64,000 nt of DNA, taken from Dehalococcoidia bacterium. GTDB lineage: Bacteria; Chloroflexota; Dehalococcoidia; SHYB01. A model generated the notes under the pieces. It was not told where the DNA came from. It was given only the letters and a program-made list of their open reading frames with translations, and made no database searches. Positions 4,899 through 56,163 of the stretch are shown piece by piece. Within the stretch, counting starts at the first letter, position 1. Every line of letters starts with the position of its first letter. The position numbers and the translations under genes are program-made. The DNA lies in contig OZ244810.1 in assembly GCA_965220155.1 (NCBI GenBank), positions 626,728-690,727 on the forward strand, written 5' to 3'.

Positions 4899-5282
4899 CT
4901 ACCAGTGCCACACAGAGTCATGGCTGTCCCAGAGGCCAGCCATGCCCTTGTTATCCACGACTTGAACGCCCTCGATGAGACCGCCCTTATCGATGCCCCG
5001 GGCTGCGAGGTCGTCCGAAACCGCGTAGACCTGGACCCCCTTGCCCATCAGCTCCTCCAGGTCTTTGTCGATGGTGGGAGGGACTCTCAGCGGGACCCCT
5101 CCTATGACAAGGCCACTGGCGTCCTGCCCTGGCAGGGCATAGTTCACCGCGTTTCCGCGAAGCAAGACCGACACGTCTGCCCCGGCATTCTTCACCGCTG
5201 CCGTGATCCACAATACGGTGTCATCCTGCTCTTCGATCGTCCCATGGTAGGCCCGCTCCACGATTGTGAGGATTTTGCCCAT
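4899..5282 (-). CDS. DsrE/DsrF/DsrH (TusBCD)-family sulfur relay protein, 127 aa
   Basis: MGKILTIVERAYHGTIEEQDDTVLWITAAVKNAGADVSVLLRGNAVNYAL...VYAVSDDLAARGI, a DsrE-like fold pattern. Start at the internal ATG of track ORF 4899..5381. Confidence 0.65.
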   Translation of the reverse strand: MGKILTIVERAYHGTIEEQDDTVLWITAAVKNAGADVSVLLRGNAVNYALPGQDASGLVIGGVPLRVPPTIDKDLEELMGKGVQVYAVSDDLAARGIDKGGLIEGVQVVDNKGMAGLWDSHDSVWHW

Positions 5283-5290
5283 GCTCGCTC

Positions 5291-5689
5291 CTACCGCGTC
5301 CCAATGATGAGCGTGTTGGCGCTCTCTTGCGACCACTTGAAGAGGTCCGCTGGTCCGCCCCTCCTGGGGCCGTCGATCCATGACCCGGAACCTCGTTCAT
5401 CGACACACAACCCGCAGTTGATCCAGTCGAGCTTGCCGTCGGCCATCTTAAACAGGCCGTCGATGAACTTGGACGTCGTGGGGTGGTCCTGCTGGTCGAC
5501 GTCTGTCCCTTTCACTGGGTTCGGGTGCGGCGCCTGCTCTTTCATGGTCATGTTCACCGCCCCCTCATACGCGAAGACGTTGACATTGTGCCCCTTCCGG
5601 AGGGCAGCATCGACGATCCTCATAACCGTCGTCGTCGTCTCCGACTCGTATGGAGGGTCCATAACCGCCATGGTAATGGTCTTGGTCAT
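5291..5689 (-). CDS. DsrE/TusD-like sulfur relay protein, 132 aa
   Basis: MTKTITMAVMDPPYESETTTTVMRIVDAALRKGHNVNVFAYEGAVN...INCGLCVDERG with a conserved Cys region like DsrE/TusD. Start at the internal ATG of ORF 5291..6082. Confidence 0.7.
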   Translation of the reverse strand: MTKTITMAVMDPPYESETTTTVMRIVDAALRKGHNVNVFAYEGAVNMTMKEQAPHPNPVKGTDVDQQDHPTTSKFIDGLFKMADGKLDWINCGLCVDERGSGSWIDGPRRGGPADLFKWSQESANTLIIGTR

Positions 5690-5724
5690 CGCTGGTCGCT
5701 CCTTAGCTCTACTTTGGGCCCGGA

Positions 5725-6054
5725 TCAATGCCAGACGGGCTTGATGTCGTCCTCGGCTAGCATATCTACCAGGTGATCGACGTTGCTGACCTTGACCCCG
5801 GAAAGCAGTGAGCCCAGCGCGATGGCCCGCTCCTTGAGGCAGAAATCGTCGGCCAGCACGTTCACCTTCCCACCAGTCAGGAGCCCTTGTACAGGGCTTT
5901 CCGTCCCCTGTCGGGCCATTAGCACCCCGTTTTGCAACAGGAAGAGGTTGACGTCGTTCCCTGCAGCCGCAAGGTCGCCTGCCAGGCCACACAGATAAGA
6001 AACATCCCCATATTCGAAGGGGTCTCGGGACTCGATCAACAGATACTTCGCCAT
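5725..6054 (-). CDS. DsrH/TusB-like sulfur relay protein, 109 aa
   Basis: MAKYLLIESRDPFEYGD...NLFLLQNGVLMARQG...KVNVLADDFCLKERAI matches the DsrH/TusB pattern (LLQDGV...VYVL.EDL.ARG). Start at the internal ATG of ORF 5725..6108. Confidence 0.6.
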   Translation of the reverse strand: MAKYLLIESRDPFEYGDVSYLCGLAGDLAAAGNDVNLFLLQNGVLMARQGTESPVQGLLTGGKVNVLADDFCLKERAIALGSLLSGVKVSNVDHLVDMLAEDDIKPVWH

Positions 6055-6212
6055 GGCACCTCCATTCCCATCGCGAGGCCACCGCTTCGGCCTACGGGTG
6101 CGCACCAAACACGAGCCTCGCCTAACCTCTCGCAGCAGCAGTTAACAGGGTACCACGAGGATGCTGAAGAATCAGCGTCAAGAAGATCGGACTAGGGCGG
6201 TCCCCCATTTCG

Positions 6213-6251
6213 TTAACACTCCATTAACACCGCGTTAAGCGTCCCTTAAAG
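6213..6251 (+). promoter_or_regulatory. Pho box: four direct repeats TTAACA / TTAACA / TTAAGC / TTAAAG at exact 11-bp phasing, immediately upstream of the pstS-like gene
   Basis: Sequence cgTTAACActccaTTAACAccgcgTTAAGCgtcccTTAAAGg, repeats starting near 6213, 6224, 6235 and 6246. PhoB/PhoP-type sites are direct repeats with 11-bp periodicity. A further TTAACA lies about 50 bp upstream. Confidence 0.5.
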
Positions 6252-6275
6252 GCCGTGATTCAGAGTGGGGGCAGC

Positions 6276-6860
6276 ATGACGCCAAGGGCCAACCTCGCCA
6301 GACCACGGGCACCCGCGCGTCGCATTCCTTGGATGCCTTGGCTGGCCGTGACCGTCACCGCCGCTGTCGCAGCAGGTACTCGCACTCCCGAAGGCACCGG
6401 GGGCGGCTTCAAGCGCTTCTGCTCGGGGGGGACGAACCTTTCCAGCGCCTCCCCCCGCTCCATCAAAGAGTACGAGAAGCGAGAATGCCGGCAGGCCGGG
6501 CTTGAGCACACGGAGTTTGGGGTCGCTATTGATGGGGTCTCGATTCTGGTTGACCCCAAGACCCGATTCGTGGACTTTCCGGCCACCGATGAATTGATGC
6601 GCATCCGGGCGCCGGGCTCCAAGGCTGCTTCCCCGTCGGAGGAGACCATCATTAGCGGGACCTACAGTCCGCCTTCCAGACCACTATACGTTTGTGCAAG
6701 CAACAGATCGTTGCGGGAAACGCCGGCCATTCTGGAGTTTGTCAGGTTGTACCTGGAAGGAGCAGGAGTCCTCTCGACCCGAGTCGGCTGTGCGGCCCCT
6801 TCAGACTCGTCCTACGTGAGCCGGCTGGAGCGGCTCGACGAGATAGCGGGCATGCCGTGA
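6276..6860 (+). CDS. pstS: PstS-family phosphate-binding protein homolog, abnormally short (194 aa; likely degenerate or pseudogene)
   Basis: Contains [38 protein letters not shown]...[13 protein letters not shown] and the C-terminal [14 protein letters not shown] motif of PstS (TIGR02136-like). It lacks the signal peptide / first strand and about 125 aa of the central domain relative to typical 300-340-aa PstS. Confidence 0.55.
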
Positions 6861-7807
6861 CGCTTGCGGAGCGGCCTTCGGACGAGAGCGGCCCGGGAGG
6901 GATCCCTCGGCGCCGCACCGGTCCCAGGGCGGAGGAATGGCTGGTCTCGAAGGGGCTCCTGATCGTCGCCATGGTCTCCGTGTTGACCACGGTTGGGATC
7001 GTGGTCTCTCTGTTGACCGAGGCCGTCTCCTTTTTCCGGGAGATTCCACTGTCGGAGTTCTTCGGGGATACGAGGTGGGCGCCCACCTTCGAGCCTCAGC
7101 ACTTCGGCATCTGGCCCCTGGTATCGGGGACGCTTCTCATCACAGCCATCGCCGCGGCCGTAGCGATCCCAGTGGGACTCGGTGCCGCGATTTTCTTGAG
7201 CGAATACGCTCCGGACAAGCTGCGCAGGACCCTGAAACCGATCCTCGAGGTCCTAGCGGGCGTGCCGACGGTCGTCTACGGCTTCTTTGCGCTGACGTTC
7301 GTTACGCCCACGATCATCCGTAACCTGCCGGGACCCTTCGCCGATGCCGATATCTTCAACGCTCTCAGCGCTGGGGTCGTGGTGGGCATCATGATCATTC
7401 CAATGATCGCTTCGCTCAGCGAAGACGCGATGACCGCGGTGCCGAAGTCGTTGCGAGAAGGGGCCTATGCCCTGGGCGCAACCCGGTTCGAGGTAGCTAG
7501 CAAGGTGGTGGTACCAGCCGCTTTCTCTGGGATAGTGGCCTCGTTCATCCTGGCAATATCCAGGGCCATCGGTGAAACCATGATCGTCACTCTTGCGGCG
7601 GGCGCGACTCCAAAGCTGACGGCGAATCCACTTGAGAGTATCCAGACGATGACTGCCTACATCGTCCAGATCAGCCTCGGCGAAACGCCTTTCGGCTCGA
7701 TCGAGTACAAGACCATTTTCGCCGTGGGCCTCGTCCTGTTCATCATCACGCTGGGGATGAACATCCTGGGGCATTGGATCGTCAGGCGCATTCGGGAGGC
7801 CTACTGA
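6857..7807 (+). CDS. pstC: Phosphate ABC transporter permease PstC
   Basis: TM-rich ORF with ...[37 protein letters not shown]...[15 protein letters not shown] start overlaps the pstS stop (GTGA). Start uncertain within track ORF 6692..7807. Confidence 0.75.
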
Positions 7808-8718
7808 TGCTGCGGTCATCAGTCGAGGGGGCTGCAGGATCGCGCCCCTTTGGCAGGTGGCGGGAGATCAGGTCTCGGCTCTATCCCGTTGTATTCGCTC
7901 TGGCAACCCTCGTGGGGATCGTGGTCTTGCTGACGTTGCTGGTCCAGATATCCATCTCAGGGATCCCCCAGCTCGACTGGGGTTTCATCACCAGCTTCCC
8001 CTCCAGGTTTGCCGAGCGCGCGGGGCTCCTCAGCGCATTAATGGGCACGATCTGGGTCATGGGCTTTACGGCGCTCTTTTCATTCCCGATGGGGATCGGC
8101 ACTGCTATCTATCTCGAGGAGTACGCGCCGAAGAACTGGGTAACCGGTATCATCCAGACTAATATCTCCAACTTGGCCGGCGTGCCATCCATCGTCTATG
8201 GTCTGCTAGGCCTCACAGTCTTCGTCCGCTGGTTCGCCCTCGACCGAAGCGTCCTGGCAGGCGCGTTGACCATGACGCTGCTCATCCTTCCAATTACGAT
8301 CATTGCATCTCGAGAGGCCATCAGGGCCGTCCCCGGTTCTCTGAGGGAGGCGTCGTTTGCCCTGGGCGCCACGAGGACGCAAACGGTGAGGAGAGTCATC
8401 CTCCCGTCCGCGCTGCCGGGCATCTTGACCGGGACCATCTTGTCGATGTCTCGGGCTATCGGCGAGACCGCGCCTCTCATCATGATGGGAGCGCTGACCT
8501 ATATCGCCTTCGTTCCGGGGAGTAACGGAATCCAGAACGCCCCGTTGGACCCTTTCACAGTACTACCGATCCAGATCTTCAATTGGGCCTCCAGGCCCCA
8601 GCGAGAGTTCCAGGACCTCGCCGCCACGGGGATCGTTGTGCTGCTTATCGTATTGCTGCTCATGAACGCAACGGCCGTCCTCCTGCGCGACCGATTCCAG
8701 AAGAAGTCACAGGGATAA
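7807..8718 (+). CDS. pstA: Phosphate ABC transporter permease PstA
   Basis: ATG overlaps the pstC stop (TGATG). ...[31 protein letters not shown]...[13 protein letters not shown]. Confidence 0.85.
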
Positions 8719-8750: not shown

Positions 8751-9638
8751 ATGTGCCCCATCGAAACCAAGACGCAGGCACCCGATATCTCCGTTTCTCT
8801 TGAGCCTCAGAGCGATCTCCTGGCCCAGCCCAGCCCGATCGTACCTGATGGGCCCGATGGGCTCGGTGGTGAAACCGGGGCCCTTCAAACCCAGGGATTG
8901 GGCCTGTTCTACTCCAGTCACCACGCTCTCGCGGACATCACGATGAAGGTCCCTGTCCGGAAGATCACCGCGATCATCGGCCCGTCTGGGTGCGGAAAAA
9001 GCTCCTTGCTTCGCTGCTTCAACAGGATGAACGAACTGATACCCAACGTTCGCCTGGAAGGAAAAGTCCTCTTCCACGGCCAGGACCTCTACAGCCCCGA
9101 CGTCGATTCGACCGACGTGCGGCTTCGGGTGGGAATGGTGTTCCAAAAGCCGAATCCCTTCCCTAAGTCCGTTTACGAGAATGTCGCCTTCGGAGCGAGG
9201 ATCAACGGCTTCCGCGGGTCGATGGATGAGCTGGTGGAGCGCTCGCTAGTACAGGCCGCGTTGTGGGACGAAGTGAAGGACCGGCTGAAGAAGAGCGCTT
9301 ATGAGCTGTCGGGCGGCCAGCAGCAGCGCCTGTGCATCGCCCGTGCGTTAGCAGTGGCGCCAGAGGTTATCCTGATGGATGAGCCGGCGTCAGCCCTCGA
9401 TCCACTGGCCACCCTGAAGATCGAAGACCTCATGTACGAGCTGGTCCAAAACTACACTATCGTGATCGTGACCCACAACATGCAGCAGGCGGCCCGTGTT
9501 TCCCACTTCACGGCCTTCGTGACCACCGATGGCGGAGGTGCTCCTGGCAGGCTGATAGAATTCGACTCCAAGGATGTCATCTTTACAAATCCCAAGGACC
9601 AGAGGACTCAGGACTACGTGACCGGCAGGTTCGGATAA
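8751..9638 (+). CDS. pstB: Phosphate ABC transporter ATP-binding protein PstB
   Basis: ...[43 protein letters not shown]...[17 protein letters not shown]... Confidence 0.9.
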
Positions 9639-9641
9639 ACC

Positions 9642-10310
9642 ATGACGACCAGGAGAGGTTTCGAGGCCGAGCTTCGCGAGCTTCAGGACAGCGTCCTGGA
9701 GCTGGGGAGCATGGTCGAAAAAGCAGTGAACAGGGCCATCGACGCACTCAAGCGCAGGGACGTCACTCAGTCCCAGCGAGTAATCGACGAAGACATCCAG
9801 ATTAACCACAAGCGCTTCGAGATCGAAGAGACTTGTCTGCGGCTTCTGGCGACGCAGCAGCCCATGGCCAGCGACCTGAGGACCATTGTATCGGTCCTAC
9901 ACATTACTGTGGACCTGGAGCGAATGGGCGACTACGCGGAAGGCATCGGTAAGGTAGGTGTGCTGATCGGCGATGAGCCGCTGATCAAGCCGCTGGTAGA
10001 CATTCCACGTATGGCGGAGCTTGCGCTCAGCATGCTGCGGCGCAGCCTCGACTCCTTCATCAATAAGGATATCGAGGCCGCAAAGCAGGTCTGCCGGGAT
10101 GATGACCTGGTAGACGCCCTCCACGAGCAAGTGTACCGGGAGCTCCTCACCTACATGCTTCAGGACCCCAGGAGCATCAACCAGGCTACATATTTGACCT
10201 GGGTTGGGCACAACCTGGAGAGGATCGCGGACCGGTCCACAAACATCTGCGAGCGAGTGGTCTTCACCGCGACGGGCAAGATGGAAGAAATCGGCGCGTC
10301 CAAGTACTAG
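9642..10310 (+). CDS. phoU: Phosphate signalling complex protein PhoU
   Basis: 222 aa, MTTRRGFEAELRELQDSVLELGSMVEKAVNRAIDALKRRDV...DLERMGDYAEGI, the PhoU duplicated 3-helix motif. Confidence 0.9.
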   Translation: MTTRRGFEAELRELQDSVLELGSMVEKAVNRAIDALKRRDVTQSQRVIDEDIQINHKRFEIEETCLRLLATQQPMASDLRTIVSVLHITVDLERMGDYAEGIGKVGVLIGDEPLIKPLVDIPRMAELALSMLRRSLDSFINKDIEAAKQVCRDDDLVDALHEQVYRELLTYMLQDPRSINQATYLTWVGHNLERIADRSTNICERVVFTATGKMEEIGASKY

Positions 10311-13977: not shown

Positions 13978-15095
13978 ATGATTGCGAAAGGATTGGGAAA
14001 GAGCCTGCTCAAAGCGTTGGGAAAGGTGCCTGATCCCCGGTCTGGTCATGGTCGTCGTCACCCGCTGAGCGCAATCTTGGCGCTATCGGTGTGCGCGATG
14101 ACCAGCGGCGCCCGTAGTCTCTATGCCATCGCCCAATGGGGAAGGATGCAGGACCCGGATACGCTCAAGGCATTGGGGTTCAGTAGGGACAGGACCCCTG
14201 CCGTGTCCACGTTGCACAAGGTGTTTCGCAGTATGGACGTGGATGCCTTCGAGGTGGTGTTGGGTGCATGGGTCGAATCGCAGTTGGGCACAGGGGAGGA
14301 GGCCCTAGCGATAGATGGCAAGGCGCTGAGAGGGATCCACGGGGACGACGAGGTGCCTGGAGTCCGCCTGGTGGCTGCCTACACCCATCGCCAGGGTCTG
14401 GTGGTGGGCCAAAAAGGGGGGTGCGGGCTGAGCGGCATGAGTCCGAGTTGAGCATTGCGGGTGCGCTGTTGGGGACGGTCCCGCTGACGAACAGGGTGGT
14501 CACCGCAGACGCCCTGTACTGCCAGAAGCGGTGGTGCGAGCAGGTGGTTTCTGAAGGTGGAGACTACCTGCTGATCGTCAAGGGCAACCAGAAGGGCCTC
14601 TACGAGGATATCGAGCTGTGTTTCGAGGAGCCGGTGGCGGGGGAGACCTACGCCTATGCCGAGACGGAGGACCGGCATGGAGACCGAAAGGACCGTCGCA
14701 GGCTGTGGTCGACCGACACGCTGAGGACCTATCTGGACTGGCCCGGACACCAGCAGGTGATGAAGGTAGAGCGTCGGTGCCGGGTGAACGGCAAGACCAC
14801 TCGGCAGGTCCGATACGCGATCACCAGCCTGGGGGATCGGACCCCTGATAGCCTGCTCCAACTGATTCGAGGCCATTGGGGAATCGAAAACGGTCTCCAC
14901 TATGTGCGGGACGTCACGCTGGGAGAAGATGGCTCCCAGATACGGACCGGCTCAGCGCCACAGGTGATGGCCGCTGTGAGAAACCTGGTGCTCACGATCC
15001 TCAGATTGTCCGGTGCGGTCAACATCGCAGCAGCGATCAGGAACATCGGATGGCAGCCTAATGGCCCCCTCAGACTGCTCGGACTGCTCACATGA
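13978..15095 (+). pseudogene. ISAs1-family transposase, split by a frameshift in an A5G6 homopolymer run (about 14411..14425)
   Basis: ORF1 13978..14451 (MIAKGLGKSLLKALGKVPDPRSGHGRRHPLSAILALSVCAMTSGARS..., the ISAs1 N-terminal region) and ORF2 in another frame to 15095 (...VTADALYCQKRW...GDYLLIVKGNQ...HWGIENGLHYVRDVTLGEDGSQIRTG...). The junction GQKGG / VRAERHESELSIAG lies at ggccaaaaaggggggtg. This is either a sequencing error, true inactivation, or a programmed frameshift. Confidence 0.6.
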
Positions 15096-38128: not shown

Positions 38129-38203
38129 GCGGGGGTAGCTCAGTGGTAGAGTACCTGCCTTCCAAGCAGGCTGTCGCGGGTTCGATCCCCGTCCCCCGCT
38201 CCA
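38129..38203 (+). tRNA. tRNA-Gly (anticodon UCC), CCA encoded
   Basis: GCGGGGGTAGCTCAGTGGTAGAGTACCTGCCTTCCAAGCAGGCTGTCGCGGGTTCGATCCCCGTCCCCCGCTCCA. 7-bp acceptor stem, anticodon loop CUUCCAA, T-loop GGTTCGATCC. Confidence 0.85.
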
Positions 38204-50800: not shown

Positions 50801-50895
50801 TGGCGGAGGGAATGGGATTTGAACCCATGGTAGGGCGATTAACCCTACAACCGCTTAGCAGGCGGCCGCACTAGACCAGGCTATGCGATCCCTCC
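50801..50895 (-). tRNA. tRNA-Ser (anticodon GCU), class II with long variable arm, CCA encoded
   Basis: Minus strand GGAGGGATCGCATAGCCTGGTCTAGTGCGGCCGCCTGCTAAGCGGTTGTAGGGTTAATCGCCCTACCATGGGTTCAAATCCCATTCCCTCCGCCA, anticodon loop CUGCUAA. Confidence 0.85.
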
Positions 50896-55892: not shown

Positions 55893-56163
55893 ATGTAAAA
55901 GGCGAAGACGGAGACGAGTAGCGGCCCCCAAGGGCGCTCAGCGAGCCCGGTACGGTGAAAGCGGGTACGCTCTAGGACGCGAAAATCCCTCCCGAGCCGC
56001 TGCCCGAACACGACGTCAGTAGGCGCAGCCGGAAGCCCCCGTTACCGGGCAAGGGCATGAGCGCGTGCCCGGCAGAGACGCCCCGGACCTGATTCGGGGA
56101 ACAAGGGTGGTACCGCGGGTTGATGCAGCCCGTCCCTTGATAGGGGCGGGCTTTCCTGATTTT
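55893..56163 (+). promoter_or_regulatory. T-box riboswitch leader (Ile-specific by context) upstream of ileS, with promoter TTGACC-18-TATGCT at 55857..55886
   Basis: Canonical T-box sequence AACAAGGGTGGTACCGCGG at 56100..56118. Terminator hairpin AGCCCGTCCC-TTGATA-GGGGCGGGCT then TTCCTGATTTT at 56126..56163. Candidate specifier AUC in gcgaaaAUCcc near 55985. Confidence 0.7.

Follow-up and report, generated by a model that had tools for sequence, protein, structure and literature searches.

A probable pstS remnant between a Pho-box-type promoter and intact pstCAB–phoU genes in a member of the Dehalococcoidia

The pst operon and its promoter region

The window, by which the whole 64-kb stretch of DNA analysed is meant, carries on its forward strand a short ORF related to pstS, followed by pstC, pstA, pstB and phoU and preceded by tandem repeats of the Pho-box type. 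The features of the locus are given below, with scores set against the NCBIfam equivalog cutoffs for the four downstream genes; N:S denotes nonsynonymous to synonymous segregating sites.

6212–6255, + strand: Pho box, four tandem 11-nt units (sequence, with comparative support)
6261–6266, + strand: putative weak −10 hexamer, CAGAGT, 8 bp past the last Pho unit (inferred)
6276–6860, + strand: probable pstS remnant, a 194-aa ORF that is open in the window (partial TIGR02136 match, alignments, profile)
6378–6392, + strand: N-terminal deletion junction, approximate, at residues ~35–39, TRTPE (multiple alignments)
6621–6630, + strand: central deletion junction, …PGSK / AASPSEE… (alignments; residues 179–260 of the structure 4jwo unmatched)
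6857–7807, + strand: pstC, intact (TIGR02138, 279 bits, cutoff 196; N:S 10:29)
7807–8718, + strand: pstA, intact (TIGR00974, 276 bits, cutoff 193)
8751–9638, + strand: pstB, intact (TIGR00972, 366 bits, cutoff 343; N:S 6:15)
9642–10310, + strand: phoU, intact (TIGR02135, 220 bits, cutoff 130; N:S 2:8)

An earlier reading of the DNA, made from the sequence only, had taken pstC, pstA, pstB and phoU to be intact, and the family models bear this out, since all four exceed their cutoffs. Polymorphism and dN/dS place pstC, pstB and phoU under purifying selection. The remnant lies immediately 5′ of these genes, the usual operon position of PstS family members, and its stop codon overlaps the GTG start of pstC (GTGA); the Shine–Dalgarno-like sequence before pstC is only a weak one.

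In pstA, N:S is 10:10, above that of its neighbours, and codons 1–18 (7807–7860), a poorly conserved N-terminal tail, account for four of the ten nonsynonymous variants. In all strains, PstB is extended at its N-terminus by about 45 aa in which Pro, Gly and Gln are abundant; the TIGR00972 match follows this extension and begins at residue 101 when the maximal pstB ORF, of 351 aa, is numbered.

The four units of the Pho box are, in order, GTTAACACtcc, ATTAACACcgc, GTTAAGCGtcc and CTTAAAGGccg, each with a core of 8 bp followed by a 3-bp linker. The TTAA cores start at 6213, 6224, 6235 and 6246, in exact 11-bp phase, and 24 nt separate the end of the last hexamer from the ATG at 6276. The pattern TTAA-N7-TTAA-N7-TTAA occurs once in the 64 kb, at the Pho box, against an expectation of 0.00 from 100 dinucleotide-preserving shuffles of the window. 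A fifth TTAACA, at 6142, was excluded from the box, being 71 bp upstream, out of phase and not conserved in the related assembly L001.

PHO boxes are composed of 11-nt direct-repeat units (PMC4415409; PMC2275107) and were recognized here by at least two direct repeats with 11-nt periodicity, 7–8 conserved positions and a linker of 3–4 nt (PMC4415409, PMC1906773). The window has four such units with exact spacing. They occupy the −35 position, at a short fixed distance from a weak inferred −10 hexamer and with a Pho-regulon gene downstream; the box is invariant in seven strains, and phased units recur in orthologous promoters. Of the PHO boxes described, the cyanobacterial SphR type comes nearest, with three or more 8-bp CTTAACCT units joined by 3-bp linkers (PMC1906773). 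The putative operator of the window resembles it in its head-to-tail arrangement of four units, its 11-bp period, its (G/A/C)TTAA(C/G/A) core and its location immediately ahead of a pst operon and its −10-like hexamer. Unlike the described box, it belongs to a high-GC member of the Chloroflexota and has GC-rich linkers, and no gene for an OmpR-family regulator is encoded in the 64-kb window. The PhoP box of Bacillus subtilis, TT(A/T/C)ACA, also resembles these units.

Comparison of seven strain-level assemblies shows that the Pho box is identical in all of them. Among strains, the 136 aligned nucleotides 5′ of the ATG differ by a single substitution and a 1-nt indel, and no variation is seen among the seven over the final 85 nt, where all four units lie. 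Set against 4.8% segregating sites in the adjacent remnant ORF, this invariance indicates that the promoter region is under selection. In a further strain, L169, a short-read scaffold has a 10-N gap (640–655) in place of the Pho-box region, so that this assembly is uninformative on the operator; the tandem units may be hard to assemble.

Pho-type units were also found in related genomes, 5′ of pstS in four loci (L002, L006, L007 and L038) and 5′ of pstC in a fifth (L010). Phased TT[AG]AC repeats of three or more units occur only upstream of pstS within the 6–13 kb loci L002, L006 and L038. In five loci, an xAxxxT hexamer follows the last Pho unit after exactly 8 bp, always 5′ of pstS or pstC (CAGAGT in the window, TACACT in L002, TATGAT in L006, GAGTCT in L007 and CACAAT in L010). 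A strict promoter scan detected no canonical sigma-70 −35/−10 pair at the locus, as is expected of an activator-dependent promoter in which the activator replaces the −35 element. The transcription start would lie only a few nucleotides 5′ of the ATG at 6276, leaving a 5′ leader that is very short or absent. An Rfam scan gave no match at the pst locus. The sequence-only reading had described four TTAACA-like repeats with exact 11-bp spacing as a Pho-box-type site, and their uniqueness in the window and conservation in relatives uphold this: the repeats appear to form a good, comparatively supported operator, at which regulator binding is predicted.

Extent of the pstS remnant and the segments lost

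Against the PstS family model TIGR02136, the 194-aa protein scores 62.8 bits, far from the cutoff of 206.6, and matches in two separate stretches; Pfam gives no match at E≤0.01. It had been described as a PstS homologue of about 194 aa that was shortened in frame, which the partial profile match confirms. Alignment with a full-length PstS of 322 aa (P0002) covers only residues 76–157 (48% identity) and 240–313 (40%) of the latter. Likewise, a profile of 322 positions made from 12 full-length PstS proteins is matched only at positions 74–150, by remnant residues 40–117, and at positions 244–313, by residues 118–194.

About 128 of some 320 PstS residues are missing, and about 60% of the length is left. 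The earlier reading had put the loss at about 125 aa of the central domain, apparently through in-frame deletions; it in fact comprises two blocks, about 40 aa of the mature N-terminus and about 82–90 aa of the centre. The N-terminal block corresponds to DGSSTV.P..EAVAEEF....VRVTVGxS; its exact junction is ambiguous, because remnant residues 1–39 align poorly to homologues. The central block contains the DSGTFDYF loop and most of lobe II. In all syntenic relatives, 240–300 extra nucleotides (~80–100 residues) lie between the two matching segments. A translated search and inspection of the other frames of 6255–6400 revealed no frameshifted remains of DGSSTV, and no other frame or strand across the remnant has the synonymous excess of an overlapping gene under selection.

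The retained segments are themselves altered. Over them, the remnant is 40–48% identical to full-length members of the PstS family (TIGR02136/PF12849), but it differs from the family in several ways: most of lobe II is gone, as are two of the ligand-binding loops, a third of those retained positions that are highly conserved carry substitutions, and purifying selection is absent. An alignment of 62 full-length PstS proteins has 120 columns conserved to at least 90%; of these, 55 are deleted in the remnant, 26 substituted and 39 kept. The segments DGSSTV, SGTGGG, ExD..ASR and DSGTF were taken as those that contact phosphate, presumably corresponding to Thr10, Ser38, Asp56 and Ser139–Thr141 of E. 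coli PstS. The remnant has lost DGSSTV and DSGTF altogether. In the other two segments the key Ser and Asp have been replaced: SGTGGG has become EGTGGG, with Glu for the conserved Ser, and ETD has become GTN, with Asn for Asp. The substituted columns include D54N, W111R, L133P and Y140C, and in most strains R135G alters the conserved SRPLY motif. Motifs that have been kept are GTGGGFKRF, ASxR.IK, VAxDG and one like Y.P.SRPLY. The earlier reading had given the motif as ASR.IK; ASRPIK actually reads ASPRSIK, with a one-residue insertion.

The sequence-only reading had also proposed that a signal peptide is lacking, for which no support was found. Residues 1–16 include five Arg, and the 18 residues that follow (17–34) are uncharged and hydrophobic, with a peak Kyte–Doolittle value of 2.18 over 11 residues. 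Cys36 is present in most strains but lies outside a canonical lipobox. Residues 1–39 thus resemble a putative signal or anchor sequence, although the homology of this region is ambiguous.

An AlphaFold2 model of the remnant, built on a 64-sequence alignment, has a mean pLDDT of 65. Confident prediction is confined to part of lobe I (parts at pLDDT 80–94); residues 1–43 and 89–118 have values under 50, and the second lobe is absent. The sole significant PDB match of the model is a PstS protein from Planctomyces limnophilus, 4jwo (TMq 0.58), the closest solved structure; weaker matches are mostly to other PstS. Residues 95–178 and 261–312 of 4jwo are matched, and residues 179–260 and approximately 60–94 are not. 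A PstS fold is taken here to be the complete two-lobe type II periplasmic-binding-protein fold of about 270–300 mature residues, and neither profile coverage, 4jwo coverage nor the AlphaFold2 model extends to this. Structure modelling had been suggested earlier as a means of judging whether a closed cleft could form; as the model has no second lobe, a closable binding cleft is not possible in the remnant.

Variation among strains and the arrangement in relatives

Comparison of the window with six strain-level loci (~99.3% nucleotide identity) gives 20 nonsynonymous and eight synonymous segregating sites in the remnant, against 26:55 in pstCAB–phoU (Fisher P=3.7×10⁻⁴) and 45:99 in ten neighbouring genes (P=1×10⁻⁴). 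With eleven sequences the figures are 23:8 and, in pstCAB–phoU, 28:62 (P=4.2×10⁻⁵). Pairwise dN/dS is 0.82 in the remnant and 0.08–0.14 in pstC, pstB and phoU. In strain L169, codon 145 carries a nonsense allele (S145*, TCG>TAG), which ends the ORF 147 nt short of intact pstC–pstA. The nonsynonymous excess, the dN/dS value and the nonsense allele together indicate that the protein sequence of the remnant is not under selection and evolves neutrally at the amino-acid level within the species. The ORF is open in 10 of the 11 sequences, without frameshifts, and the single indel seen is in frame. As roughly one stop would be expected under neutrality with about 30 polymorphisms, the open frame weighs neither way. 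Several of these assemblies are low-coverage long-read assemblies (7–25×). Most variants of the remnant, R135G among them, are common to several assemblies, and so are not random assembly errors; the neighbouring genes, assembled likewise, show few nonsynonymous differences. The remnant is shorter than all homologues, shows no purifying selection and has a disabling allele segregating, as is expected of a pseudogene.

The short gene, of 582–585 nt, is present in at least ten assemblies that differ in sample and assembler, among them L001, L085, L086, L087 and L170, two circular contigs, L084 (3.61 Mb) and L088 (3.53 Mb), Logan contigs from two runs (L082 and L083) and the short-read scaffold L169. 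At 90% identity or more, the protein and its relatives group into a single cluster with ten members. When 1.84 billion representative proteins were searched exhaustively with HMMER, no short-form relatives appeared beyond this cluster; the other good matches are PstS proteins of 300–350 aa or tandem fusions matched in two stretches, or fragments at contig ends. Neither short nor intermediate forms were found outside the remnant's own 90% cluster among 5.8 billion clusters, and JGI metagenome contigs contained no short form, only full-length relatives at up to 55% identity. The sequence-only reading had allowed that a naturally short family might account for the length and had proposed alignment to PstS as a check; the alignments and these searches instead show the protein to be incomplete, and the short PstS appears to be species-specific.

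Single-base differences in these genomes call for some caution. In L001 (1–1146), the chorismate synthase gene is split into ORFs of 197 and 193 aa (390 aa in other strains), and in L085 (14693–16361) a 1-nt insertion breaks thrS into ORFs of 414 and 139 aa. These splits are likely to be single-base indel errors of low-coverage long reads, and frameshift calls in these genomes should be treated accordingly.

The nearest genomes by PstC are MAGs of Dehalococcoidia and other Chloroflexota (59–67% identity). Seven related loci have a full-length pstS directly 5′ of pstC (L002, L003, L006, L007, L019, L036 and L038), with a pstS–pstC spacing of 1–3 nt in the closest relatives (L002 and L003), and six have pstCAB without an adjacent pstS (L010, L015, L017, L018, L020 and L033). 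The flanking genes in L010 and L015 were confirmed by Pfam. Such pstS-less operons in related Dehalococcoidia MAGs (for example L015, OY730490.1, and L010, CAXXNJ010000009.1) encode PstC proteins 62–65% identical to that of the window. In L010, a two-unit TTAA-type Pho box, 8 bp from the −10 hexamer, lies directly 5′ of pstC and downstream of genes for an OmpR-type regulator and a histidine kinase. Unlike the window, which keeps a 585-nt relic between Pho box and pstC, these operons have lost pstS wholly. An unlinked pstS thus seems to be normal in related genomes.

No second pstS was detected in the 64-kb window, in which tblastn with full-length PstS and an HMM from 12 PstS proteins matched only the remnant. 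The E. coli PstS sequence likewise matched only the remnant among six-frame segments of the window. Among the best 120 of more than 8000 matches in a PstS-profile search of 5.8 billion proteins, none was traceable to the species, and no member of ten candidate PstS clusters lay on the species' 2.5–3.7 Mb contigs. The best non-self match of the remnant is a tandem PstS fusion of 648 aa (P0012); no such fusion was traced to the window's species among the clusters checked. Even so, the purifying selection on pstC, pstB and phoU, together with the need of PstCAB for a binding protein, implies that a functional PstS is encoded elsewhere in the genome.

PstS–PstS tandem fusions of 570–630 aa are found on many Chloroflexota contigs (P0161–P0190).

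Interpretation and surroundings of the locus

The locus is most probably a Pho-regulated pstSCAB–phoU operon whose first gene is a dying pstS, a pseudogene in progress, with the promoter kept for the intact pstCAB–phoU genes. Two in-frame losses would have removed about 128 residues, including two of the four phosphate-binding segments. Under phosphate limitation, a regulator of PhoB/PhoP/SphR type, encoded outside the window, would bind the four units head to tail; with these units in the −35 position, it would recruit RNA polymerase to the weak −10 hexamer CAGAGT. Transcription would then run through the relic into pstCAB–phoU, and the transporter would obtain its phosphate from a PstS encoded elsewhere. 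The locus may represent an intermediate towards the pstS-less pstCAB arrangement of relatives, and the window looks like an intermediate stage in the loss of the operon's own pstS.

The sequence-only reading had left two alternatives, a decayed pstS and an unusual minimal phosphate-binding protein, and the first is favoured by the neutral amino-acid evolution, the nonsense allele and the loss of ligand segments. That the 194-aa protein is functional, either naturally minimal and phosphate-binding or a neofunctionalized single-lobe protein serving PstCAB, is very improbable. An ORF at the pstS position that is open in all but one of the sequences, the kept GTGGGFKRF, ASxR.IK and SRPLY-like motifs, a signal-like N-terminus and the well-predicted parts of lobe I would all fit such a protein. 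They are outweighed by a score far under the TIGR02136 cutoff, the deleted DGSSTV and DSGTF loops with mutated Ser and Asp ligand positions, a cleft that cannot close for want of its second lobe, neutral polymorphism with a nonsense allele, Gly in place of the SRPLY Arg in most strains, and the lack of other short relatives among the 1.84 billion representatives. The minimal-protein reading is largely refuted by these results. An artefact of assembly or sequencing, for instance sequence collapsed or deleted when long metagenomic reads were assembled, is the least credible explanation of the short gene and can practically be discounted. Related assemblies are indeed of 7–25× long-read coverage and have frameshift errors elsewhere (the chorismate synthase gene of L001 and thrS of L085). 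Against this, the same gene recurs in at least ten assemblies, including two circular genomes, Logan contigs and a short-read scaffold, the losses are in frame, the retained parts are heavily diverged themselves, and there is no internal repeat to drive a collapse. The assembly collapse that the earlier reading had named as a possible cause is therefore not borne out.

A less remote, though still unlikely, explanation is that the protein is dead but its reading frame survives as a translated leader, from which ribosomes that load at the near-leaderless ATG at 6276 are handed to pstC at the GTGA overlap. Selection would then keep the frame open but not the amino-acid sequence. The overlap of the relic stop with the pstC GTG, the weak Shine–Dalgarno sequence before pstC, the 1–3 nt spacing of pstS and pstC in the closest relatives, and the lone in-frame indel with no frameshifts in 11 sequences are consistent with this. 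In L169, however, the stop at codon 145 leaves 147 nt before intact pstC–pstA, in L010 pstCAB runs straight from the Pho box with no upstream ORF, and the lack of further stops is within neutral expectation. It is, if anything, slightly more doubtful that the dead pstS is retained because its translation matters in cis, a binding-protein gene having been exapted into a leader ORF for transporter genes. Gene decay behind a retained promoter therefore remains the preferred reading, and the case is one of ordinary gene decay rather than of a new minimal binding protein.

It follows that the ORF at 6276–6860 should be annotated as a pstS pseudogene or remnant and not as a phosphate-binding protein, and that the relic is no evidence for a 'minimal PstS'. 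The locus offers a population-level snapshot of the loss of pstS from a pstSCAB operon with its promoter kept. The comparison also yields a Pho-box model for Chloroflexota/Dehalococcoidia, consisting of (G/T)TTAAC(C/A) units in 11-bp phase, a spacing of 8 bp and a −10 hexamer, which could serve prediction of the Pho regulon in these uncultured lineages.

Several other features of the window were recorded. Three small DsrE/DsrF/DsrH-like genes (4899–6054, − strand), nearly without polymorphism (0–1 nonsynonymous sites), separate the pst promoter from a suf operon that includes sufB and sufC. One of them, a DsrE/F-like gene (5725–6054, − strand), is divergent from the pst operon, with the Pho box between it and the ATG at 6276. 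Two tRNA genes are present (38129–38200, + strand; 50804–50895, − strand), the second of which, at 92 nt, has a long variable arm. A T-box leader (RF00230) at 55896–56140 (+ strand) reaches 99.9 bits, the gathering threshold being 93. Between rplT and an Fe-dependent repressor gene lies an ISAs1-like insertion sequence (13978–15095, + strand), whose transposase gene is broken into two ORFs that overlap, one for DDE_Tnp_1_assoc (157 aa) and one for DDE_Tnp_1 (275 aa). The element is absent from L084–L088, and L001 has a different transposase-like gene of 377 aa at the same spot; this presence and absence across strains marks the site as a strain-variable insertion hotspot.
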